Source: Candidatus Methanomethylophilus sp. UBA78 (lineage in GTDB: Archaea > Thermoplasmatota > Thermoplasmata > Methanomassiliicoccales > Methanomethylophilaceae). From it: a DNA stretch of 64,000 nt. The notes under the pieces were generated by a model. The model had not been told where the DNA came from. It did no database searches and saw only the letters and a program-made list of their open reading frames with translations. Shown in pieces: positions 9,175 through 23,106 of the stretch. Location of the stretch: positions 4,165 through 68,164 of the forward strand of contig DARY01000027.1 in assembly GCA_002503545.1 (NCBI GenBank), written 5' to 3'. A program made the translations under genes and the position numbers. Position 1 is the stretch's first letter, and every line of letters starts with the position of its first letter.

Positions 9175-9247
9175 GCTCCTGTAGTGTAGCGGCCAATCAT
9201 GAAGCCCTCTCGAGGCTTCGACACGGGTCCAAATCCCGTCGGGAGCA
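9175..9247 (+). tRNA. tRNA-Glu (CTC)
   Basis: Cloverleaf: acceptor GCTCCTG/CGGGAGC, anticodon arm AAGCC-CT CTC GA-GGCTT, T arm ACGGG-TCCAAAT-CCCGT. Confidence 0.92.
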
Positions 9248-9863
9248 CTTATCATTCTCTCATATCCAGATTATTCATTGGGTACAACTGCCTTCATCTC
9301 TAACAACCATGGTCTCACCTCGAGGTCAGGGGCCGCCACCGCCTCGCCGACCATGTTCGCCGCACGTTCAAGGTCGTCGAAGATGTCATCCGCGTTCGGA
9401 GGTGTTCGGTCCGAGGCCGTGTTTTCAGATCCGAGGATCGAATGGGAACGGATGCCGAATCTTCTGTATCGATGGTTTTAAGTCCGATTGCAGATGCAGT
9501 GTTGCGGGTCGCTCCTTCAGCGATTCAGTGGGGGGATTGTGGTCCCTCGACCACTCACCCCTGCACCTTTTCGCGATCCCCCGTCAGTCCGGGAATATCG
9601 TCAGTCCGCATCCTATGGCAATCGTCGAACATTACTTACGACGATTAGAACCAATCAGTCACGTGGAAAGGAAGCGGTCCGTCTCCTGGGAAGGGAACGT
9701 TCCGCCCGAAGGCGGCGGCCTTCCGTCTTTACATTCCGGGAAGATATCTGGCTATTTTGCGGATTAACGGTAAACAATCATTAATTTCCCTTGTATGCAT
9801 TCTATAAAATCTCAACCGTAAGGGTCATCAATTAAATACGAAGTATAATTTGAGCGCTCCGTT

Positions 9864-10713: not shown

Positions 10714-11523
10714 TCAGATCTCCCCGGCCGCCCTCATCCTCTGAACGCGGTCCAGGGCCTCCCTCGCCCCGGGATAGCCCTGGGCGGCCGAGCGGCGCAG
10801 CAGTTCTATGGCCATGGTGGTGTTCGGTTCCGCGGTCTGCTTCCTCACGTGCATCATGGCCAGACGGTACTGTGCCCGGGCGTCCCCCTTGCTGGCGGCC
10901 GCGCGGAACCACCTCTCGGCCTTGCGCAGGTCCTTCCCGACGCCCTTGCCGTCGTGGTACATGGCCCCCACCGTCGTCTGCGCCTCGGGGAGCTTCCTCT
11001 TGGCCGCCTCGTAGTACCAGCGGAAGGCCTTGTAGTAGTCGGGGAGGGTGCCCTCCCCGCGCTCGTACATGCGTCCGAGCTCGTATTTGGCCTCGGCCGA
11101 GGCGTGCCCCGCCACCTCGAGGAGCATGTTGAAGGCCCTGTCCTCGTCGCGGGCGACGCCCTGTCCCCGGCGGTACATCATGGCGACGGCCGCCTTCGCC
11201 TCGTGGCTGCCCTGCTCCGCCGACCTGGAGAGCCAGAGGAAGGCCTTCTCGTCGGACCTCCCGACGCCGAAGCCCTCGAGGTACCTCCTGCCGAGCTCGT
11301 ACTGCGCCTCCCCGAGGCCGCCCTCGGCGGCGATCTCGATCCATTCGGTGCACTGCTGGGGGGAGAGCAGGTTGTACTCCCCGCCGATTCCGGCGACGGC
11401 GTAGGCCGCCTCGGGACCGCCCGTCCGGTGGATCTCGCCGAGGCATGCCTCGGCGGTCTCCACGTCCCCCGCCTCTATGGCCGCGAACGCCCTCTCGATA
11501 AGTTCCTCGTCCATTTCGTTCAC
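10714..11523 (-). CDS. Sel1-like (SLR/TPR) repeat protein
   Basis: Repeated AQYELGRRYLEGFGV / AKYELGRMYERGEG / AQTTVGAMYHDGKGV units. Confidence 0.9.
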   Translation of the reverse strand: MNEMDEELIERAFAAIEAGDVETAEACLGEIHRTGGPEAAYAVAGIGGEYNLLSPQQCTEWIEIAAEGGLGEAQYELGRRYLEGFGVGRSDEKAFLWLSRSAEQGSHEAKAAVAMMYRRGQGVARDEDRAFNMLLEVAGHASAEAKYELGRMYERGEGTLPDYYKAFRWYYEAAKRKLPEAQTTVGAMYHDGKGVGKDLRKAERWFRAAASKGDARAQYRLAMMHVRKQTAEPNTTMAIELLRRSAAQGYPGAREALDRVQRMRAAGEI

Positions 11524-11581
11524 CGAGGCGTCACGGTACCGGTAACGCCGTATGCGACGATAAAGCAGACGGTGCCCCGTC

Positions 11582-12289
11582 TCACTCCTTCCCCGCCTCT
11601 TTCTCCTCTATGAGCTTTATGTGGTCCTTCGCCCTCACGAATCCGAGTTCGAAGGCCCTCTGGAAGTACTCCTTGGCCTTGCCGAGGTCCCTCTCCGTCC
11701 CGTCCCCGTAGAGGTACAGGACAGCGGTGTCGTAGACCGCCTTGGCGTAGCCGCCCTCGGCGGCGGTCCGGCAGAGGAGGAACGCCTTGGCCGGGTCCTT
11801 CTCCACGCCCCTGCCCTCGTGGTACAGGTGGCCCAGGCTGTAGGCGGCTTCCGGCATGCCCATCGATGCGGCCTTGAGGTACAGGAGGGAGGCGTATCCG
11901 AAGTTCACCTCGCACCCGAGTCCGCTCTCGTAGAAGGTCCCGAGGTTGTAGATGGCGCTGCGGTTGTTCTGCGCCGCCGCCTTCTCGGTCCACTCGAAGG
12001 CCCTGGCGGGGGAGCGCTGCGTGTTCCTGCCGGTGGCGTACATGAGTCCCAACTCGTTCTGCGCGTCGGCGTTCCCGCCGACGGCGCCCTTGCGGAACCA
12101 CATGAGAGCCTTCTTCAGATCCTGTGCGGCGCCGATACCGTAGTAGAGCATGTTACCCACGCGGAACTGCGCCTCCGCGTTGCCGTTCTCGGCGCTTTTC
12201 AGGAAATGCCCGAAAGCGCCCTCGAAATCCTTCTCCTCGAACGCCTTCCTCCCTGCTTCGAATTCGGCGTCCGTCCTGTCTTCTGGCAT
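11582..12289 (-). CDS. Sel1-like repeat protein
   Basis: AQFRVGNMLYYGIG, AQNELGLMYATG, AAYSLGHLYHEGRGV repeats. Confidence 0.9.
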   Translation of the reverse strand: MPEDRTDAEFEAGRKAFEEKDFEGAFGHFLKSAENGNAEAQFRVGNMLYYGIGAAQDLKKALMWFRKGAVGGNADAQNELGLMYATGRNTQRSPARAFEWTEKAAAQNNRSAIYNLGTFYESGLGCEVNFGYASLLYLKAASMGMPEAAYSLGHLYHEGRGVEKDPAKAFLLCRTAAEGGYAKAVYDTAVLYLYGDGTERDLGKAKEYFQRAFELGFVRAKDHIKLIEEKEAGKE

Positions 12290-12331
12290 GGGTGGTACGT
12301 ATGGGGACGGTCGTATTTTACAGATGGTACC

Positions 12332-12715
12332 TCAGGTCCTCGCCGGCCGCCTCCTGGCGGCCTCGCTGATGCACTCCCAGGCCCTCTCGGAGGAGCGTTC
12401 GACGCCGATCCCCTCTTGGTACATCCTGCCGAGGATCAGGAGGGACTCCGGGTCTCCCAGTCCGGCCGCCCGGCGGTAGATGCGGGCGGCCCTCTCGGCG
12501 TCGGAGGGGGCGAAGTCGCCTTCGAAGAACATGCGGCCCAGTTCGCGGAGGGTCTCCACGTCGTCGCTGAGCTCGGCGCCGTAGTACAGGGCCAGGGCCA
12601 TGCGCTCGCTCCTCTCGACGCCCTGCCCCACGTAGTAGAGGCGTCCCAGGCGGAGGCAGGAGGGGCCGTCCCCTTTGACGGCCCCGGATGTCAGGGTCTC
12701 TATAACGTTGACCAT
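12332..12715 (-). CDS. short Sel1-like repeat protein
   Basis: LGRLYYVGQGVERS, LGRMFFEG, LGRMYQEGIGVERS. Confidence 0.8.
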   Translation of the reverse strand: MVNVIETLTSGAVKGDGPSCLRLGRLYYVGQGVERSERMALALYYGAELSDDVETLRELGRMFFEGDFAPSDAERAARIYRRAAGLGDPESLLILGRMYQEGIGVERSSERAWECISEAARRRPART

Positions 12716-13042
12716 GTTAGATTGTATGGTGTATTAAATATATATCCGATAGGATGTTATTAACACATATTGGAAAGGATATGTCAGATGTTCTGGGGCA
12801 TCGCCATCGCTCGCAAACAACTGGATGAAGTATGTCTGGCTCATGCATCGTTTCACGGGATCCGGATCGCCCGGATCATCCTTCGTGACAGCGGTATCCG
12901 CTTTCCGGCCGCGAGTACAGAGAGATCTTTTCTAAGGTGACAGACCCAGACTCCGCATCGGACGGACAATGCTCTGCAGAACGGTCCTGCAGCGGTCCGT
13001 ATCCCCGCAGTCTGGATCATTGAATCCGGGTCGGCTGGCGCC

Positions 13043-13714
13043 TCACCGTCCGCCGATCTCCGCCATCGCCTCGGCGGCCTCCGGGACCCCGGCCTTGGCC
13101 GCCTTCCCGAGCCATTTCCTCGCCTCGCGGTCGTCCTTCTGCACCCCGAGCCTGTCTATGTACATGGTCCCCAGGAGGTATTGGGAAAAGGGGTCGCCCC
13201 TGTCCGCCGCCTTCCTGAGGACGGCGGCCGCCCGGACGTACCTCTCGGATTCGTAGTAGAAGAGACCCAGACGGGAGAGGACGGCCGCATCGTCCGACCT
13301 CTCGGATGCGGAGAGGAGCTCCTCGGCTTTACCGTCGTCCTTCTCCGTCCCCCTGCCTTCGGCGGTGAACATGGCGGCGTAGAGGGCGCCCATGGCGGAA
13401 CCGTGCTCCGCGGCCCGGGTGAAGAGGTCGAAGGCGGTCTCGTCGTCCTTCTCGACGCCGAGTCCCTCCGAGTAGTTGTAGCCGAGGTTGAACTCGGCGT
13501 CGCCGAAGCCCTGGGAGGCGGCGGCCGAGAACCAGTTGTTCGCCTCCTCGAGGTCCTTCTCCACGCCCTCGCCGGAGGCGTAGACGGTGCCGACGAAGGA
13601 CTGGACCTCGGGGTCGCCCTCCTCGGCGTATTGCAGGAGGACGGGGATGCTGTGCTCGTAGTCCCCCTTCTCGAACAGTTCGAAGGCTTGCTCCAGTTCA
13701 GGGTCGGCTGTCAT
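13043..13714 (-). CDS. Sel1-like repeat protein
   Basis: VGTVYASGEGVEKD, AEFNLGYNYSEGLGVEKD, SQYLLGTMY repeats. Confidence 0.9.
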   Translation of the reverse strand: MTADPELEQAFELFEKGDYEHSIPVLLQYAEEGDPEVQSFVGTVYASGEGVEKDLEEANNWFSAAASQGFGDAEFNLGYNYSEGLGVEKDDETAFDLFTRAAEHGSAMGALYAAMFTAEGRGTEKDDGKAEELLSASERSDDAAVLSRLGLFYYESERYVRAAAVLRKAADRGDPFSQYLLGTMYIDRLGVQKDDREARKWLGKAAKAGVPEAAEAMAEIGGR

Positions 13715-13783
13715 GGGGGAGGGAAGGGAGTTGAGGTATTAATGCTGTCGAATTCTTGTTTGAACAGTTTAAAATATAATTAA

Positions 13784-13815
13784 TGGTTGAAGGTATTTGA
13801 TATACCATTCAACCA
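13784..13815. terminator. hairpin just downstream of the island operon
   Basis: TGGTTGAA-GGTAT-(TTGAT)-ATACC-A-TTCAACCA inverted repeat, 16 nt past the last island stop codon. Confidence 0.55.
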
Positions 13816-13831
13816 CTTAAGAGAGTTTAAT

Positions 13832-14401
13832 TTAGTTTTTCAAGTCAATTTTTAAATCATTGAGTTCTTTGAACTCATTTAGGGTTTCTCTCATGAACGA
13901 GATCATTTCCTGAGGTGAGGATATATTCATGACTTTTTCGTGGATTAACTCTAATCCTCCGAGAACATATTCGTCGATGATTTCGCTATTATCCCCGTAT
14001 TTTGATTTAGCTATCAAATTTTCGTTTGATACGTCATTTGTTGGATAATCAAATCTGAGGGCATTATCTATTTTCTCAGAAAATGGAGTATCTGTTGGAT
14101 TTCCATATAGTAAAATTATTTTTCTAAGTCTGTCATAACCATATATTCCGCCTTTATCTGCATAAGCCCATCTGAATCCAGAGGGGTCTGAGTTGTTTGG
14201 ATTGTCTATAGTTGGATCGTAAGTATGCTTTCTGCCTTTCATGAGGCCATAGAGTGCGCAGAACGCATAACCCTCATAAATTTCATTGAATATTTTTTGG
14301 TAAGATGCAGCACCTCCCGTAAGGTCTTTCATACAATCTGCATACTTTCCTCTAAAATTCCATACCTGTGTCGTCTCATTTTTGTTTTTAGAGAAAGCCA
14401 T
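13832..14401 (-). CDS. hypothetical protein, DndE-like accessory of the DndD-like ATPase module
   Basis: Overlaps the ATPase stop by 1 nt; FRGKYA...IF..IYEGYAFCALYGLMKGRK...DEYVLGGLELI pattern resembles, from memory, small partners of DndD-like ATPases. Confidence 0.55.
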   Translation of the reverse strand: MAFSKNKNETTQVWNFRGKYADCMKDLTGGAASYQKIFNEIYEGYAFCALYGLMKGRKHTYDPTIDNPNNSDPSGFRWAYADKGGIYGYDRLRKIILLYGNPTDTPFSEKIDNALRFDYPTNDVSNENLIAKSKYGDNSEIIDEYVLGGLELIHEKVMNISSPQEMISFMRETLNEFKELNDLKIDLKN

Positions 14402-16344
14402 TAATCCGCCTCCACTATACGGGACTGTGTTTCAGATATTTTCTCAATACGGTATTTTTTTCCTACATTTTTTTCAAGAGTTTGAGATGCTACAGACCAA
14501 TCCTTGTCCATTAATGCCATAATCGCTTGTTCTGAAAGTTTTGGCAGTTCTTTGCATATGTTTTTGATGTGTCCTTCGTCTGTATTGGAGAATACTGCAT
14601 CCATGACCAATGGGTATGCTTCTGATCTTAGATCCAGAACGGTGCGTTCTTTGGCAACTTTCAAAAGAGAAGCGATGAATGCAAAATTTTGAACAGTATC
14701 CAATCCTTTTGAATTATCGAGACGATCTCCGCCAACATTCAAAGTAACTTTGTAGTCTGGAGTAAGTTCGATCGTACGTTTTCCATGATACATATTATTG
14801 AATACATTGGTCAATGTCTCTTTTACATCGTCAAATATTTCTTTCGAGTTAGATTCATAGCTTTCCTTAGCTTTTGCACAAAGTGCATTAACATATCTTA
14901 ATTTTTCAAGAATTTCTTTATTGAATCTATCTTCTTTACCGGCAGCACTGAGTTGACGATTGAGATCTTCGATTTTCTTTTGAATTGTTTGTATAGTCGC
15001 TTCATATCTGATTCTGTCTCTATTGAATCCATCTCTTTGGCTTCTAAGGCGCTCATACTCTTCTTTTACAGTATCTGCGTCTCTATTGTCTCCAATTCTG
15101 TCTGTGATGATGGATTGTTCGTACTCCATAACATCGAGAGTGGCTAATTGTTTTGAATATGCAGTATCTAGTCTTTCGAATAGATCTCTTTTCGAATGTT
15201 CTTTTTGTAAGGCAGAAAGGTCATTATTTAGATGGCGGATTTGTGTCCCTATAGATTCTGGGGGTAGATAAGACAATAATTCTATGAGTTCATCTCTGCA
15301 GTTTTTATTTGATGATAAGTCTGTTCCACATATGCATTTTCTACGAGACAGCAGGTAATTTACCGCAACCGCAGTCATGTCGGGAATCCCTTTGTCTTCG
15401 TAATTTAGAGAAACCATATTTTTTAAGATACTTTTAGAAACATAATTTACTATCAGCTCTGCTGTTGCTGGAACAAATGCAGAAACAAGATCTATTTCTG
15501 TGTTGGCAGAATCCTTCTGTATTTCTTTGATTTTTGTATCAAGAACTCTCAATCTGGAAGCGTCTTCTGCATATCCTTGGATTCTACCGAGTTCCTGTGC
15601 TTTACTACTTACAAGGTTTTCAAGAGTATTGTAACGTTTTTCTGCGTCTTTGTAAGATTCTTGAGCTCTTTCAAGTTCATTTTTCTGATTATTTATTTTT
15701 AAATTTATTTCTCCAATGCCCGAATCTTCTTTCATTAGTCCGCGGAGAGTTTTTTCAACATTATTCCGTCCATTTTCTAAATGGTTGATCATATGTTCCA
15801 GCGGAACTAATCCCATTATTGTGTTGATTGAATTTTTGACATTTTCGGGTTTGCGTGATTCGGCTATTTTCTCTCCGTCGAAGAAAAAATATTCTGAAAG
15901 AGACTCTGGGAGAATTTCTTTGAGTTTTATATCTCCTCCCTTGACAGCTATTTTTTCACCGTTTGAGTCGTAGAAGTAAGTCATCGAAGACCGATTAGCG
16001 AGATATGCATCTCCTGATTCTTTAGAGATATATTCATACTTTCTATAGGTCTCATAAGTTATTCCTTGGTGTATAAATGTTAGAGATACTTTGACATCCT
16101 TAGTATCTCCTTTGCGCATTTGTTTACGTACGTCGCTATTTATGACATTTTTTTGATCTGATTTTTTACCAGTAAAGTTGCAATCGTCATACAACACCCA
16201 ACGGAATGCCTGGACAAGCGTGGTTTTTCCACTGGTGTTTTTGCCAAGGAACAGGGTTACATTTTTTTCAGTGTCGGTGGAAAATTCTATTTTTTCATCT
16301 ACGTACTGTCTAAAGTTATACAGATGGAGGGTTTTTAGTAGCAT
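14401..16344 (-). CDS. SMC/Rad50-like ABC ATPase, DndD-like, with CxC hinge motif
   Basis: LYNFRQY, Walker A GKNTSGKTT, YFFFDGEKI, long coiled coil with KCICG, signature NSKGL, Walker B PLVMDAVFSNTD. Confidence 0.88.
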   Translation of the reverse strand: MLLKTLHLYNFRQYVDEKIEFSTDTEKNVTLFLGKNTSGKTTLVQAFRWVLYDDCNFTGKKSDQKNVINSDVRKQMRKGDTKDVKVSLTFIHQGITYETYRKYEYISKESGDAYLANRSSMTYFYDSNGEKIAVKGGDIKLKEILPESLSEYFFFDGEKIAESRKPENVKNSINTIMGLVPLEHMINHLENGRNNVEKTLRGLMKEDSGIGEINLKINNQKNELERAQESYKDAEKRYNTLENLVSSKAQELGRIQGYAEDASRLRVLDTKIKEIQKDSANTEIDLVSAFVPATAELIVNYVSKSILKNMVSLNYEDKGIPDMTAVAVNYLLSRRKCICGTDLSSNKNCRDELIELLSYLPPESIGTQIRHLNNDLSALQKEHSKRDLFERLDTAYSKQLATLDVMEYEQSIITDRIGDNRDADTVKEEYERLRSQRDGFNRDRIRYEATIQTIQKKIEDLNRQLSAAGKEDRFNKEILEKLRYVNALCAKAKESYESNSKEIFDDVKETLTNVFNNMYHGKRTIELTPDYKVTLNVGGDRLDNSKGLDTVQNFAFIASLLKVAKERTVLDLRSEAYPLVMDAVFSNTDEGHIKNICKELPKLSEQAIMALMDKDWSVASQTLEKNVGKKYRIEKISETQSRIVEAD

Positions 16345-16481
16345 TCTTTATACACCTCATCTATTATTTTCATAATGTTTTCGACGGCAGCGCGATCCCC
16401 ATCTATCATGCCATCCCCTCTTTCATAATCCATTATTTTTTTCCACATTTTCTCTATTTTATTTTGATTTAAATCATTCAT
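16335..16481 (-). CDS. 48-aa small protein coupled to the helicase and ATPase genes
   Basis: Manual translation MNDLNQNKIEKMWKKIMDYERGDGMIDGDRAAVENIMKIIDEVYKECY*; overlaps the helicase end and the ATPase start, filling the gap exactly. Confidence 0.75.
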   Translation of the reverse strand: MNDLNQNKIEKMWKKIMDYERGDGMIDGDRAAVENIMKIIDEVYKECY

Positions 16482-18645
16482 TTTGATCTTCCCCGTATGT
16501 GTTTAAAAGATCTTCGATAGTTATTTTGTATGCTTTGGAGATTCTTTTGAATACATTCTCAGTTTCTTCAGGATTCAGTGAAATTCTAGAGAATTCTTTC
16601 ATTCTGAGAATTTCTTTGGATAACGCTTTCATTTCCAGTCCAGAATGTTCACCTAAGGATCTGTCGCTATCAAGACTTTTAGGAATCACTATTAAATCGT
16701 AAATGTCTGCGTAGTCCTTTCCCGGAGATAAGCGGAGGACCCTTCCTCTTCTTTGAATATATTCACGAGGATTGTTATTACTGCTCATTATGACTGCGGT
16801 TCTTATTGAAGGGATGTCAATCCCCTCATCCAGACAAGAGATTGCAACAATTCCATCTATTTCGCCGTTATCAAATTCTTTTATGATTCTTTTACGCTCT
16901 TGGGCATTTTCTTCGTAAGTTATGCGAGATATTTTGAAACCCAGTCCATTTAATCCCAAGATGCGAGATGCTTTGTCGATGACCTTTAAGAAATTTGAAT
17001 GACTATTTTTGTCAAAATCTCCTTCTTCATCTGTCTTGGTTTTCCCACAGTATACTAAGAAGTGGTTTTTATTTTCAAAACCCATCATTAGTTTTTCTAG
17101 AGCCGAGAATTTTGATAGCATCTTGGCGTTTAATGAGTAACTATATTCGATATACTCGTTTTTTGCAGATGTTTTTTCGCGTTCGCTCGCATACGGATTC
17201 GATAAAATCTGATCGAGTTTTTCATTGGATTCTACAATCTGAGAGTACTCTTCTTCTGAGTAATTGCATTCTATTGGATGATAGAGATAATTTGCCAGAT
17301 ATGTTCCTATGGCAGACTCTATCGGTAAATTTATGCATTCTTCTCCGAAGTATTTTTTTAGTTTTTCAGTCCCCAACGCGTCATTATGTCTGTCAATAGT
17401 TGCAGAAAGAGCCAGACGATATTTTGCATTCGGTGGCAATTTGGTTAAGCGATTAATGGAACCCATGTTGTGGGCTTCATCGACTACTATCGCCAGGTTT
17501 TTGATTTTAGAAATCCACTTTTGGATTTCGGTTGATGAAAATGAAGATATTGTCGTAATCAAACAAGAATTGCGAGGAGATCTTTCGTAAAGTGACATGT
17601 GTCTTCTAAATTTATCTTTCCACATTCCAGATGATGAGTCTGAATGGCCGATTATTGGTATGACTCCGAATGATTTTACTTCCTCGCCCCATTGATCTAC
17701 TAAATGTTTTTGTGGAGCCACAATTATAGTGAATATATTTTCATCCGGATGATCATTGTACAGTTCTTCCAATGCACACAATGCGGTTTTTGTCTTACCT
17801 GTGCCTGTGGCCATATTGAATATTCCACGACCATCATGTTCAAGCCAGTTTTTTATCGCATCTTTCTGGTATGGGCGCTTTATCAGTTCTTTTGGCGACT
17901 TAAAGTATCTTGATTTTGGTATGCAGTCGTATTTTTCGAGAAGTTTTTTGTCAAGATCTAGATTTATTTCGCCTACTCTATATCCACCTATAAGATCTTG
18001 GACGACCTGTGGCATTTCTAAAACCATCACAGATTCATCAGAGTTGTTCCAAAGATCTTCGAATTTTTTGGATAACGTCGCAATGCGTTCCTCATTATTT
18101 GCACTTGCCGAAGACACTTCTATAAATTCCCAATTTCCACCCATTCCATTTTTGGATTCATTCATCGATCCGCTGAACGCAGCCTTATTTCCAAACGAGT
18201 CTGTCATGATTCCAAATTTTGGGTGAAATACAGCGTCGGGGTAATCGTCAAGGTTGCGCATCACTGCGATTTTAATTTTTAAAATGCCTGCAGCGATCAA
18301 TTCGGACAGAAGAGATATGCGATCAAGAGATGTAGCGTCGTCTGGATTTTCGAAGCTGTTAACCATAGATGTGCCAACAGTTTGTATTAGATCATACCCC
18401 TTTTTTATTGCAGATATGTCTTCTTGATTCAGACGAGGTGACGTTATGATTCTTATTTTTCCGCCTCTTGATGCAAGATCACATACTCCAATTGAAATTT
18501 CAACAAGAGATGATGACGTAAAATAGCCTGATGCTCTATCATAGCGATCACTGTTTTTCAGCGCAGGTATGAAAAATTGCCGAATGATATCATCTTTTGG
18601 TGGAAAATAGAAATTTTTGAATTCTACGTCCTTTAGGTTATTCAT
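16474..18645 (-). CDS. PLD-family nuclease fused to SF2 (DEAH) helicase
   Basis: YDRASGYFTSSSL, FHPKFGIMTD...FSGSMNES (HKD/GSxN), MATGTGKT, VVDEAH, LSAT, LDEGIDIP, QRRGRVLR. Confidence 0.9.
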   Translation of the reverse strand: MNNLKDVEFKNFYFPPKDDIIRQFFIPALKNSDRYDRASGYFTSSSLVEISIGVCDLASRGGKIRIITSPRLNQEDISAIKKGYDLIQTVGTSMVNSFENPDDATSLDRISLLSELIAAGILKIKIAVMRNLDDYPDAVFHPKFGIMTDSFGNKAAFSGSMNESKNGMGGNWEFIEVSSASANNEERIATLSKKFEDLWNNSDESVMVLEMPQVVQDLIGGYRVGEINLDLDKKLLEKYDCIPKSRYFKSPKELIKRPYQKDAIKNWLEHDGRGIFNMATGTGKTKTALCALEELYNDHPDENIFTIIVAPQKHLVDQWGEEVKSFGVIPIIGHSDSSSGMWKDKFRRHMSLYERSPRNSCLITTISSFSSTEIQKWISKIKNLAIVVDEAHNMGSINRLTKLPPNAKYRLALSATIDRHNDALGTEKLKKYFGEECINLPIESAIGTYLANYLYHPIECNYSEEEYSQIVESNEKLDQILSNPYASEREKTSAKNEYIEYSYSLNAKMLSKFSALEKLMMGFENKNHFLVYCGKTKTDEEGDFDKNSHSNFLKVIDKASRILGLNGLGFKISRITYEENAQERKRIIKEFDNGEIDGIVAISCLDEGIDIPSIRTAVIMSSNNNPREYIQRRGRVLRLSPGKDYADIYDLIVIPKSLDSDRSLGEHSGLEMKALSKEILRMKEFSRISLNPEETENVFKRISKAYKITIEDLLNTYGEDQNE

Positions 18646-18802
18646 CAGGCATCCTGTCCAGATCTTAAGATCTATGGCACAGTATATGGATGTGGCGGAT
18701 TGATAACTTAAAAAGGTTATCTTTCATTCATCGATTTTTAATTTTATGTACCAAATGATACAATTGGTTTCAAATTAAATTCAAAACCGCCGGAAGTATG
18801 TT

Positions 18803-20827
18803 TTAATTCTCCCTCTTGTAATGGATCATTTCTAATCTTGTAGAAACATCTTTTTCACTAGTTTCTGAAACGAATTCGATTAATTTCTTTATGTTTGTAG
18901 TGCGTCTTATGGCGGTAGAATGTCTGATTCCAGATTTTGATATTATGTCACTCAGATAAACATGACCTTCTTTGGTATGGATGATTAATTGCTGGATTAT
19001 AGGTATTCTGAGTATCAACTTTCTATAGATGTCTGCGCGGTCCTTTATATTCATTTTTGAGATATATTCTCCAAGTGGACTAAGCAGTACATATTTTCTG
19101 TGATCTTTGGGGTCATTAGAGGTTTTTATTATAGCTAAATCCAGCATCGATGCTGTTTTGGCATGGTTCTCTCCGAATTTTGTATTTGATACTTTGTTAT
19201 TTTTGCCTCTGTATAGTTTTGAACCAAGGGTTTCGTAGCTTAATTCTGCATCGCATTCTTTTAAAACATCTATGAGCAGATCAGTACAATAACTCAAATC
19301 GCCGCCAAATTGTGGAATGAATGCGGAATCAATCGAAACATATGGGAATGTATCTATGAGTTTAATTATGTCTGAAATAGAGTGTGATTTAAGAGCCCTA
19401 ATTAAGCGTTCACAGGCTTTTTCAGAATTCGTTCTGCAACCGCATGTTGGATTTTTTCTCACCAGACAATAAAGATCCAAGGTTTTTTCATAATAATACT
19501 TTAGCCATTCGTCTGTTTTGGACGCTACTACGGAGTCCCATGTAATTGAATTGATTATGCAGATTTCACAGGGTTCAGTTTTTATGCGCCCGTAGTTAAA
19601 CGAAAGATCATATTCATTCTCATTTTCATATTTTAAGTAAAAATATTTTTTTGCAATTTCAGGATATTTTGATTCGAAATCTGTCATCGCTTTAAATGCA
19701 GAGCAGTATTCTTCCCCCTTCGTATAGTCCTGATTGGCTTTGCAAAATTCTCCGAATGATTTTTTTTTAAAGAATTGCGGTTGGTTGCACCAGCGGGCCA
19801 GCTGTACGTATACGTCTCTAAATTTACTGGTGTTGTAGTCTTCATAGCGCATAATGTATGGCAGACATCCGTGTTCCATCAGGATTTTGATGCGTTCAAA
19901 TGTGTTGATTACATCGATTAACTCTGGGTCGTAATTCGACAATGTTATGTTGCTATTATGTGGATCATAGGCGCATAAGACATAGAGTTTGGTCGTCTTT
20001 TTACAATATTTACGCCATATCCTAAGTTTCTTTATAATTATGTCTTTATCTTCAATGTGGTCAAATGCGAATATATAATCGCCGTAATACATAGACTGCG
20101 AAAGAATCTTTGCACGTTTTTCCGTAATTAGGCGGATATCTAGCCCTTGTCTGAATTGAAAAGGTTTTCCTGTGAAATTTAATTGGTTCAGTATGTTTTC
20201 CCAATCTTTTCCGCAAGCAAGGATGTTATCATCCCAAAGGTATATTCCGGGTCTTGTTTCATCTAAAAACTCGTTCACATCTGCGTGTTTTTTGCAACGA
20301 GAGTATTTTTTGTTAACACAGAACGAACATTTCCTAAAACAACCTCTTGTCGTAAATCCTATTGAGAAATACTTATAGTCGTTGAAAGATGATTCTTTGT
20401 AGCCCTCCTCCACCATTTTAGCGATATATTCATCATAGAGGGTGTAATCTGGCATTATATGTTCTATGCACGGATCTAGATTTCTCCCTCCATCATTGAA
20501 GAATCCTGTTCCGCCGATTGACAAAACAGGTTTCTTTTTTGGTTCCGTATCCTCTAGTGTTTCAATAATAGACGTGTTTAGTAGTTTTGGGTTGTTGACT
20601 ACTTCTGGAAACTTTTCTGTGATTTGATGAGGTAATTTTGTAAAATTAAAGACTTTTGAAATTATGATAGCATCATATTCTTCTAGATTATTCAGTAAAT
20701 CGCCAAAGATTAATTGAGTGACGTGGCCTTTATCTTTGCAATATTTGCTGATTTTCATTTGAGCCAAGTTGGGATGTCTTGTACCATTATCTATTAGATC
20801 TGCATCGATCATCCCAACTTTTAACAT
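18803..20827 (-). CDS. radical SAM protein with C-terminal putative DNA-binding domain
   Basis: TTRGCFRKCSFC (CxxxCxxC), WDDNIL, QGLDIRL, PYIMRY, LARWCN; additional C-terminal ~170 aa (IPQF...KFGENHAKTA...LRIPIIQ...STAIRRTTNIKKL). Confidence 0.85.
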   Translation of the reverse strand: MLKVGMIDADLIDNGTRHPNLAQMKISKYCKDKGHVTQLIFGDLLNNLEEYDAIIISKVFNFTKLPHQITEKFPEVVNNPKLLNTSIIETLEDTEPKKKPVLSIGGTGFFNDGGRNLDPCIEHIMPDYTLYDEYIAKMVEEGYKESSFNDYKYFSIGFTTRGCFRKCSFCVNKKYSRCKKHADVNEFLDETRPGIYLWDDNILACGKDWENILNQLNFTGKPFQFRQGLDIRLITEKRAKILSQSMYYGDYIFAFDHIEDKDIIIKKLRIWRKYCKKTTKLYVLCAYDPHNSNITLSNYDPELIDVINTFERIKILMEHGCLPYIMRYEDYNTSKFRDVYVQLARWCNQPQFFKKKSFGEFCKANQDYTKGEEYCSAFKAMTDFESKYPEIAKKYFYLKYENENEYDLSFNYGRIKTEPCEICIINSITWDSVVASKTDEWLKYYYEKTLDLYCLVRKNPTCGCRTNSEKACERLIRALKSHSISDIIKLIDTFPYVSIDSAFIPQFGGDLSYCTDLLIDVLKECDAELSYETLGSKLYRGKNNKVSNTKFGENHAKTASMLDLAIIKTSNDPKDHRKYVLLSPLGEYISKMNIKDRADIYRKLILRIPIIQQLIIHTKEGHVYLSDIISKSGIRHSTAIRRTTNIKKLIEFVSETSEKDVSTRLEMIHYKREN

Positions 20828-20977
20828 GATTCGTGAGTAATGTTGCGATCATTTATTTACGTTACGATCTATTGAGAAATTTGTTATTGACATGATTGGA
20901 ATGGGATTTACAATAAGGTAAAGTTTTGAATTGAGCGAGTATAATGAATTTTTCATACCTGTAATTTATCTACAATC

Positions 20978-21154
20978 ATGGGAAACAGAATGGTCATTGG
21001 TTGCCCCTGCTGCGGCGATGCCGAGTCCCCCATCCTGAAGACCTGCTGGGACGAGGACGGCGGCCACATAGAGGTCTACCGGTGCGTCTGCGGTTGCAGG
21101 TTCGCCGTCACCGTCGAGGTGCTCGACCGTCCGTCCGCCGACGGTCAGGTTTAA
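20978..21154 (+). CDS. 58-aa Cys-rich zinc-ribbon protein
   Basis: Manual translation MGNRMVIGCPCCGDAESPILKTCWDEDGGHIEVYRCVCGCRFAVTVEVLDRPSADGQV*; host-like codons; below the ORF-track cutoff. Confidence 0.65.
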   Translation: MGNRMVIGCPCCGDAESPILKTCWDEDGGHIEVYRCVCGCRFAVTVEVLDRPSADGQV

Positions 21155-23019: not shown

Positions 23020-23106
23020 GCCGAGATAGCCCAGCCCGGTAAGACGCAAGCCTGGAAAGCTTGTGGGAGCAATCCCTCGGGAGTTCAAATCTCCCTCTCG
23101 GCGCCA
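23020..23106 (+). tRNA. tRNA-Ser (GGA), CCA encoded
   Basis: GCCGAGA...TCTCGGC-G-CCA; anticodon arm CAAGC-CT GGA AA-GCTTG; long variable arm; GGGAG-TTCAAAT-CTCCC. Confidence 0.95.

Follow-up and report, generated by a model that had tools for sequence, protein, structure and literature searches.

The window analyzed here is a 64,000-nucleotide stretch of the genome of the archaeon Candidatus Methanomethylophilus sp. UBA78 (contig DARY01000027.1, positions 4,165 to 68,164). On its minus strand lies a gene of 674 codons (18803..20827, ATG to TAA) for a radical S-adenosylmethionine (rSAM) fusion protein, likely the DNA-marking, or writer, component of the cassette in which it is found. This gene is the first of five and is followed downstream by those for PbeA, a micro-open reading frame (micro-ORF), PbeC and a 189-amino acid (aa) protein. 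Judging from these neighbors, it appears to head a PbeABCD-type cassette, a context missed by the first-pass annotation, which had been made from the letters and reading frames of the window.

The radical SAM protein and its cassette

PbeA (723 aa; 16474..18645, minus strand) is a fusion of an HKD/phospholipase D (PLD) nuclease with a superfamily 2 (SF2) helicase; it matches the PADLOC PbeA profile (E 2.3e-196), contains the Pfam domains PLDc_2, ResIII and Helicase_C, and bears the HxK..D..GSxN motif. The 48-aa micro-ORF (16335..16481, minus strand) overlaps the PbeA stop and the PbeC start and has no match in Pfam, its assignment to PbeB being by position only. PbeC (647 aa; 14401..16344, minus strand) is a DndD-like ABC ATPase of the CxC clade with a CxC hook, whose motif is present; it matches the PADLOC PbeC profile (E 2.1e-89), and TIGR03185 below cut-off. 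The 189-aa gene (13832..14401, minus strand) stands in the position of PbeD, the cognate of DndE, and is assigned by position and homology: phmmer aligned it to the gene that follows PbeC in five loci linked to Ssp or Dnd (E 3.6e-9 to 6.9e-5). Its comparison with other rSAM-linked fourth genes was weak (hhalign probability 2%), and the profile libraries returned no match for it, so that a DndE-like double ribbon-helix-helix, as expected of PbeD, would be putative. The order of PbeA (HKD-SF2), micro-ORF, CxC ABC ATPase and fourth small gene is the same in DndCDEA-PbeABCD (Xiong et al., 2019, PMC6459918) and in the CxC ABC-ATPase/DndE systems (Rakesh et al., 2024, PMC10853773), which are one and the same. 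Unlike DndCDEA-PbeABCD, the present cassette lacks DndA, DndC, DndD, DndE, Ssp genes and a methylase, and has the rSAM fusion upstream instead.

All 13 motifs that the first-pass annotation had quoted from the rSAM fusion are present, each at its expected place. The protein as a whole was modeled with AlphaFold2 at high confidence (mean predicted local distance difference test (pLDDT) 90.2, predicted template modeling score 0.81). Pfam, NCBIfam and PADLOC gave nothing above cut-off for it, the Pfam Radical_SAM match being weak (E 0.022); aa 4-363 match phrog_9298, “radical SAM domain protein” (E 8.6e-45). Homology searches yielded 7996 candidates that were scored, 3877 of which proved to be homologues with lengths of 370-1180 aa. 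Since the 120 homologues listed among these span nearly the whole query (coverage 91-100%, identity 42-58%), the fusion represents a real family and no artefact. Sequence searches of solved structures with the C-terminal module and with an rSAM profile found no significant match, and the ESM Atlas, queried via the homologue P0032, returned unnamed clusters only.

The rSAM core (aa 145-402; 19622..20395, minus strand) is recognized by the phrog_9298 match, its fold and a conserved CxxxCxxC motif (C163/C167/C170; 20318-20341, minus strand), the three cysteines being kept in 59/59 fused homologues and 30/30 stand-alone-domain rows. The motif sits in a partial TIM barrel, and the fold matches those of MiaB, RimO and MgmA. 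Motif and modeled fold thus agree with membership of the radical SAM superfamily, and cleavage of SAM is predicted. The proposal of the first-pass annotation that this domain belongs to a family common in phages was borne out by the phrog_9298 match, the structural fit and annotated phage copies. Two further cysteines of the core are not universal (C362 in 24/30 rows, C375 in 14/30).

Ahead of the core, aa 1-130 (20438..20827, minus strand) form a shortened Rossmann domain devoid of conserved cysteines, which the first-pass annotation had overlooked and which is homologous to the N-terminal domain of class-B (cobalamin-binding) rSAM enzymes. When residues 1-390 of the model were superposed with VIA-align, the best matches were MgmA (Z 16.9), AprD4 (16.2), MiaB (15.2) and RimO (14.9), in agreement with Foldseek; hhalign against six B12-radical-SAM proteins aligned both the N-terminal domain and the core (probability 96%, E 2e-9). 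Ser57 is kept in 24/30 rows and Gly105-Gly106 in 30/30, and these are presumably the residues of the tail pocket. With the class-B enzymes MgmA/QCMT, TsrM, TokK and OxsB and the cobalamin-free AprD4, the present enzyme shares a partial TIM barrel preceded by a Rossmann domain (Z 10-17, with profile homology); it differs from them in its shortened N-terminal domain, in the low identity of 9-14% and in the DNA-recognition-type module attached to it. AprD4 is reported to have a similar N-terminal domain, yet to bind no cobalamin (PMC12931638). A methylthiotransferase (MTTase) of the MiaB/RimO/MtaB type was considered and rejected because the N-terminal cysteine triad for the auxiliary cluster is not present: the cysteines before C163 are not conserved (C30 in 28/59 fused homologues and 3/30 rows, C120 in 1/59), and TIGR00089 scores 15.9 bits against a cut-off of 251. 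A divergent rSAM gene of a sister clade, with a fuller B12-binding-like domain that matches PF02310 below cut-off (E 3.6e-5), follows a PLD-module fusion at another locus (L317:3693-6034).

The linker behind the core (aa 415-464; 19436..19585, minus strand) is likely a structural metal site. Its cysteines C420-x2-C423, C454 and C462 are invariant in all 59 fused homologues, in keeping with the second cysteine cluster of the first-pass annotation, from which C464 (6/59) and C472 (5/59) drop out as variable. Matches to the linker were found in none of the free modules and in one of 80 viral loci. An essential catalytic auxiliary cluster was rejected because split and phage forms occur without these cysteines, which are therefore likely structural and dispensable; of the suggested auxiliary Fe-S or Zn site, the metal site stands as likely and the catalytic cluster is unlikely.

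The C-terminal module (aa 501-674; 18806..19327, minus strand) consists of a winged helix and a second helix-turn-helix (HTH), bears the motif K[YF]GENHxK and resembles the FokI recognition domain. Folded alone, the last 174 residues gave a model with a pLDDT of 94.8. The FokI DNA-recognition domain (2fok_A) aligned over 156/174 residues with a middling score (Z 8.3, root-mean-square deviation (rmsd) 3.9) and was the only listed structural match to span the whole module. MarR-type winged helices fit residues 509-603 (Z about 9); the low-rmsd MarR matches span about 70-80 residues, the first half of the module, with Z tied with that of FokI. Foldseek with the module found no match at E<=0.001, the SspB and BrxA profiles did not match it, and MTaX1 was absent from its Pfam scans, in which the presence of an MTaX1 model is unconfirmed. 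The HTH character foreseen by the first-pass annotation is upheld by the MarR-type matches and the FokI alignment. Its expectation that the module is fused elsewhere to methylases or McrB failed: none of 35 module-bearing proteins scanned (30 longer matches and 5 of the free type, taken from 150 listed of 726 representatives) has such a partner, the recognizable ones being PLD/HKD nucleases, a ParB-like domain and one S24 peptidase. Most of the 150 are free proteins of about 225 aa.

Within the same order, the close clade of the rSAM protein occurs in 5/251 genomes, the present one included; another 15/251 (L236-L250) hold a more distant copy only (E 1e-34 to 1e-44), which may be proviral. The rSAM genes of the loci L069 (genome G518) and L005 (genome G601) each contain one in-frame TAG, opposite E311 in the former and near aa 41 in the latter; as both genomes are PylS-positive, these codons are probably read through as pyrrolysine and the genes are not broken. 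The present genome carries tRNA-Pyl and PylS as well, which, like its closest named relatives, point to a host from the Methanomassiliicoccales. Cultured carriers of the family are on record (L001, L007, L008 and L064).

Partner modules and DNA-marking genes in other genomes

Loci were compared among the best 80 of 218 relatives in genomes, several of which are near-duplicates. A nuclease/helicase module lies beside the rSAM gene in 66 of the 80: Pbe (29), ParB-SNF2 (15), PD-(D/E)XK/PLD (7), DrmAB-like (5), DndFGH (4), GmrSD (4) or HerA-type (2). Genes are tightly packed, with a spacing to the next gene of -17 to +34 bp in the eight ParB-SNF2 and Drm loci checked, and the ParB-SNF2 operons have the rSAM gene at one end and its module at the other. 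The six-gene operon of rSAM, ParB-like, ~137-aa, SNF2 helicase, ParB-like and free-module genes was seen at L021, at 14 further loci in genomes and at many of the loci L254-L299; PADLOC has no whole-system match for it.

Enzyme and effectors do not travel as fixed pairs. On a FastTree phylogeny of the rSAM protein, from which 13 duplicate or partial loci were left out and to which 25 of the 80 viral rows contributed, 29 partner changes are needed against a minimum of 8, and the window's rSAM belongs to a clade of four that has three different partners. The enzyme is constant and the effectors vary, partner modules having been swapped repeatedly. The association was also recovered from the opposite direction, since 60 of 80 metagenome loci picked by the module alone hold this rSAM gene; among the other 20, a contig end truncates 16, within the operon or immediately ahead of it, the sister rSAM is found in one, another consists of a truncated module on its own, and the last two are short and tell little.

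No phosphorothioate (PT) writer lies within 4 kb of any of the 28 rSAM-Pbe loci, whose 122 neighbor proteins include no 3′-phosphoadenosine 5′-phosphosulfate (PAPS)-reductase writer; at least 3 kb is available on both sides in 16 of these loci. A DNA methylase occurs within the same distance in one (L026, a MutH-C5 fusion), and two small-molecule-type methyltransferases lie beyond it. As a control, PbeA was sought regardless of rSAM among 399 genomes of Clostridia and 251 of the same order. From the 20 loci read, one without PbeC and two with this rSAM gene (one being the L069 genome) were set aside, leaving 17 with PbeA and PbeC. Ten of these have a PT writer, namely DndC in six, called by PADLOC, and an SspABCD-type set in four, called twice by PADLOC and twice by in-house hidden Markov models (HMMs) and gene sizes. 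The rest have N6/N4 methylases (five, three of which belong to a neighboring type II restriction-modification (R-M) pair) or were not assigned (two). In four Clostridia genomes (L181-L184), PbeABCD directly follows SspA/B/C/D-type writers, a pairing of Pbe with Ssp that was not encountered in the literature consulted.

Genome-wide, 1/50 rSAM-cassette genomes has DndC and 4/50 a strong BrxP/SspD-like gene, and neither was found in the four genomes in which DndFGH lies behind rSAM. The genome of the window, which is 87% complete, has no DndC above cut-off and no SspB, SspC, DndB, DndE or DndFGH; two of its PAPS-reductase-like proteins are 27% identical to SspD, a level of resemblance that methanogen controls also match. 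In the 80 metagenome loci, in-house HMMs found no PT writer and one C5 methylase. A phmmer search with seven methylases against the proteins of the 80 genome loci returned L026 only, and other methylase types may be missed by it in the non-Pbe loci; a regular-expression scan for methylase motifs recovered 2/7 known controls and was not relied on.

The history of the Pbe proteins was followed in two tree sets, one of which left out five near-identical rSAM rows, long-branch or incomplete controls and split genes, the other comprising 17 rows with rSAM and 10 control rows. Together with those of L069, PbeA and PbeC of the window nest among PT-linked Pbe (100/99), and Ssp-linked PbeA is the sister group of the window's PbeA (89/96). 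Methylase-linked Pbe are the ones with which the other rSAM-linked Pbe cluster. A single clade of rSAM-linked Pbe is rejected by the approximately unbiased (AU) test (p 1.2e-7 for PbeA, 1.9e-4 for PbeC). The pairing of rSAM with Pbe must therefore have had two or more origins or have undergone repeated replacement, the unrooted trees giving no direction. The CxC motif is kept in 3/27 rSAM-linked PbeC, the window's included.

Viral relatives and the genomic island

A relative is encoded by 293 viral contigs, a count that includes much redundancy. In the best 80 viral loci, the module is not present in 78, and the neighbors include a ParB-N6/N4 methylase-like cluster (29, an upper bound because some have ParB only), C5 methylases (14), SAM synthetase (8), PAPS reductase (8) and terminase (18). 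Phage copies often directly adjoin C5 and N6/N4 methylase genes, and many others have no methylase. Seventeen annotated phage records match, a copy in a Methanomassiliicoccales phage being 47% identical. Phage members of phrog_9298 belong to the same family and differ in being stand-alone proteins of about 300-400 aa without linker and module.

The cassette lies in a low-GC island (13780..20990; 36% GC in a 60%-GC genome), and the slot that it fills is variable, with a Sel1-repeat gene on one side and a GNAT gene on the other. The island is bordered by a series of Sel1-repeat genes (10714-13714), PF08238 being confirmed for 13043-13714. In the congener G011 the same slot holds 37%-GC cargo consisting of NurA, HerA, an ATPase and a 299-aa gene, with no rSAM. 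This set, with a fourth gene of about 290 aa, lies at L091:3441-9145 in G011, recurs at L092 (G008), L005 and L053, and looks like an unnamed defence module. Between the rSAM gene and PbeA, no promoter-like site scored above shuffled sequences. A perfect 15-nt inverted repeat inside PbeA (18564-18578) and upstream of the rSAM gene (20947-20961) is probably due to chance in AT-rich DNA, and the repeats of the island in general look like chance. Farther out lie tRNA-Ser (23020-23106) and tRNA-Glu (9175-9248).

Candidate roles of the enzyme

The rSAM gene is probably the writer of a self mark on DNA for its PbeABCD-type cassette. The FokI-like module would hold the enzyme on DNA, where a 5′-deoxyadenosyl radical would activate a C-H or P center and the mark would be installed; this mark would license PbeABCD, so that host and viral DNA are told apart, and phages may have copied the enzyme as a disguise. 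An rSAM enzyme would then stand in place of the sulfur-inserting or methylating enzymes usual for such modules. In favor of this reading are the domain anatomy, the operon, the lack of PT writers nearby, the repeated exchange of partner modules and the phage copies next to DNA methylase genes; DNA as the substrate, the role of the mark as a self tag and the use of the stand-alone enzyme by phages as a counter-defence are inferred. Characterized PbeABCD is reported to need a host DNA mark and to spare virus that carries it, and 320 of 553 PbeAC lack dnd genes (PMC6459918). The cassette would accordingly be expected to work like an R-M or PT system, yet it falls outside the PT systems, since genes for PT writers were tested for and not found. 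An architectural parallel is offered by the PT writers of SspABCD and BREX type 4, in which, according to PMC12839542, a writer-type enzyme is likewise paired or fused with a FokI-like multi-HTH module, BrxA/SspB/DUF4007 modules being fused to PT-writing PAPS reductases; in contrast to these, the present catalytic domain is radical SAM instead of a PP-loop PAPS reductase, and neither a cysteine desulfurase nor SspC accompanies it. The “sequence-targeted, DNA-acting radical enzyme” of the first-pass annotation fits the gene context, DNA binding and catalysis both being putative.

Several observations weigh against this reading. The functional evidence for a writer is gene context throughout. 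Among the best 80 loci in genomes, 14 show no recognized module; the genomes are in many cases incomplete, and test and control sets both include kin. A missing writer need not be replaced, because Pbe is reported to be non-toxic in the absence of PT (PMC6459918), and DndFGH and CxC systems are said to stand alone often (PMC10853773). The NurA-HerA module is convergent with the rSAM gene in G008, L005 and L053, and occurs without it in G011. The C-terminal module is not needed everywhere: most phages do without it, as do the five Drm loci and a number of Pbe loci, L069, the nearest relative, being one of these. Its recognition-helix motif is almost invariant across systems, unlike the specificity domains of R-M enzymes, which diverge fast. 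As for the chemistry, Pfam B12-binding (PF02310) matched 0/30 rows at E<1, and the span ahead of CxxxCxxC is much shorter than that of class-B enzymes.

It is unlikely that the enzyme acts on the invader's side, either damaging or tagging incoming DNA by radical chemistry or making an antiviral nucleotide in the manner of viperins and perhaps Ophion, as a second layer to the nuclease module. The rSAM gene does accompany many unrelated effectors, the module is also fused to PLD nucleases and may therefore read invader DNA, and radical SAM defence enzymes of such logic are described (bioRxiv 2025.09.30.679545), Ophion being, by that account, a different rSAM defence. However, a toxic antiviral enzyme does not explain why phages keep close relatives in their own methylase/SAM-synthetase clusters; the exclusion with PT writers (0/28 against 10/17 in the controls) fits a writer slot, and the structural neighbors are class-B/MTTase-type enzymes, viperin not being among them. 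That the enzyme hypermodifies or erases an existing mark, such as 5-methylcytosine or the N6-methyladenine and N4-methylcytosine of host or phage methylases, as M6 gp53 or spore photoproduct lyase would, is likewise unlikely. The phage copies directly beside methylase genes speak for it, as does the one characterized DNA-modifying radical SAM enzyme, described as acting on a pre-modified base (PMC8989533), but among linked genes, to which the survey applies, a methylase occurs in 1/28 Pbe loci and 1/80 metagenome loci, and many phage copies have none. The same source presents M6 gp53, a glycinyl-thymine isomerase, as a radical SAM enzyme that installs a DNA modification in an anti-restriction context; its description as spore-photoproduct-lyase-like and as part of a multi-enzyme 5-hydroxymethyl-2′-deoxyuridine pathway, of which no genes were recognized here, sets it apart.

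Modification of a partner protein by the rSAM domain, with the winged-helix module regulating transcription of the cassette, is quite improbable. MgmA, the best structural match, methylates a protein, MarR-type regulators come out on top for the first half of the module, and an S24 peptidase is the fusion partner of one copy of the module; yet the seven module types have no partner protein in common, nor do the phages, and the low-rmsd MarR fit covers about half of what FokI aligns. The slot is a cargo hot spot and defence genes cluster, which would suit a gene merely carried along in defence islands and functionally unconnected with the neighboring modules. Such an explanation is highly improbable in view of the tight gene spacing, the bracketing of ParB-SNF2 operons and the metagenome loci picked by the module, most of which hold this rSAM gene or, where they do not, are mainly cut by a contig end.

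If the enzyme is a writer, cobalamin-type radical methylation of an unactivated carbon or phosphorus is favored, albeit tentatively; a cobalamin-free radical rearrangement or dehydration, by analogy with AprD4, would have an equal claim, and sulfur insertion a distinctly smaller one. A still broader proposal is doubtful, namely that the mark written by a single rSAM enzyme belongs to a new class of host epigenetic marks, perhaps one of the sugar-phosphate backbone (for example C- or P-methylation). Such a mark would be functionally interchangeable with PT for Pbe and DndFGH, would serve at least seven restriction-type modules and would give phages that copy it a universal disguise. PMC12914056 describes PT as the only known backbone modification.

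The literature search found no paper describing this rSAM family in defence, with the supplement of PMC10853773 and the 2020 ABC-ATPase classification outside its scope, either of which could list the neighborhood; the supplements of PMC6459918, searched for “radical,” gave no relevant match. The Pbe control set, the trees with two origins, the FokI-like fold and the homology to cobalamin domains are what the present analysis adds. A self-DNA mark written by the rSAM enzyme would be a possible answer to a question that stands open in print, that of how “solitary” PbeAC modules recognize their own DNA. More generally, the cassette points to radical chemistry as a means of modifying host DNA, and the enzyme of phage M6 is the only precedent found for this.

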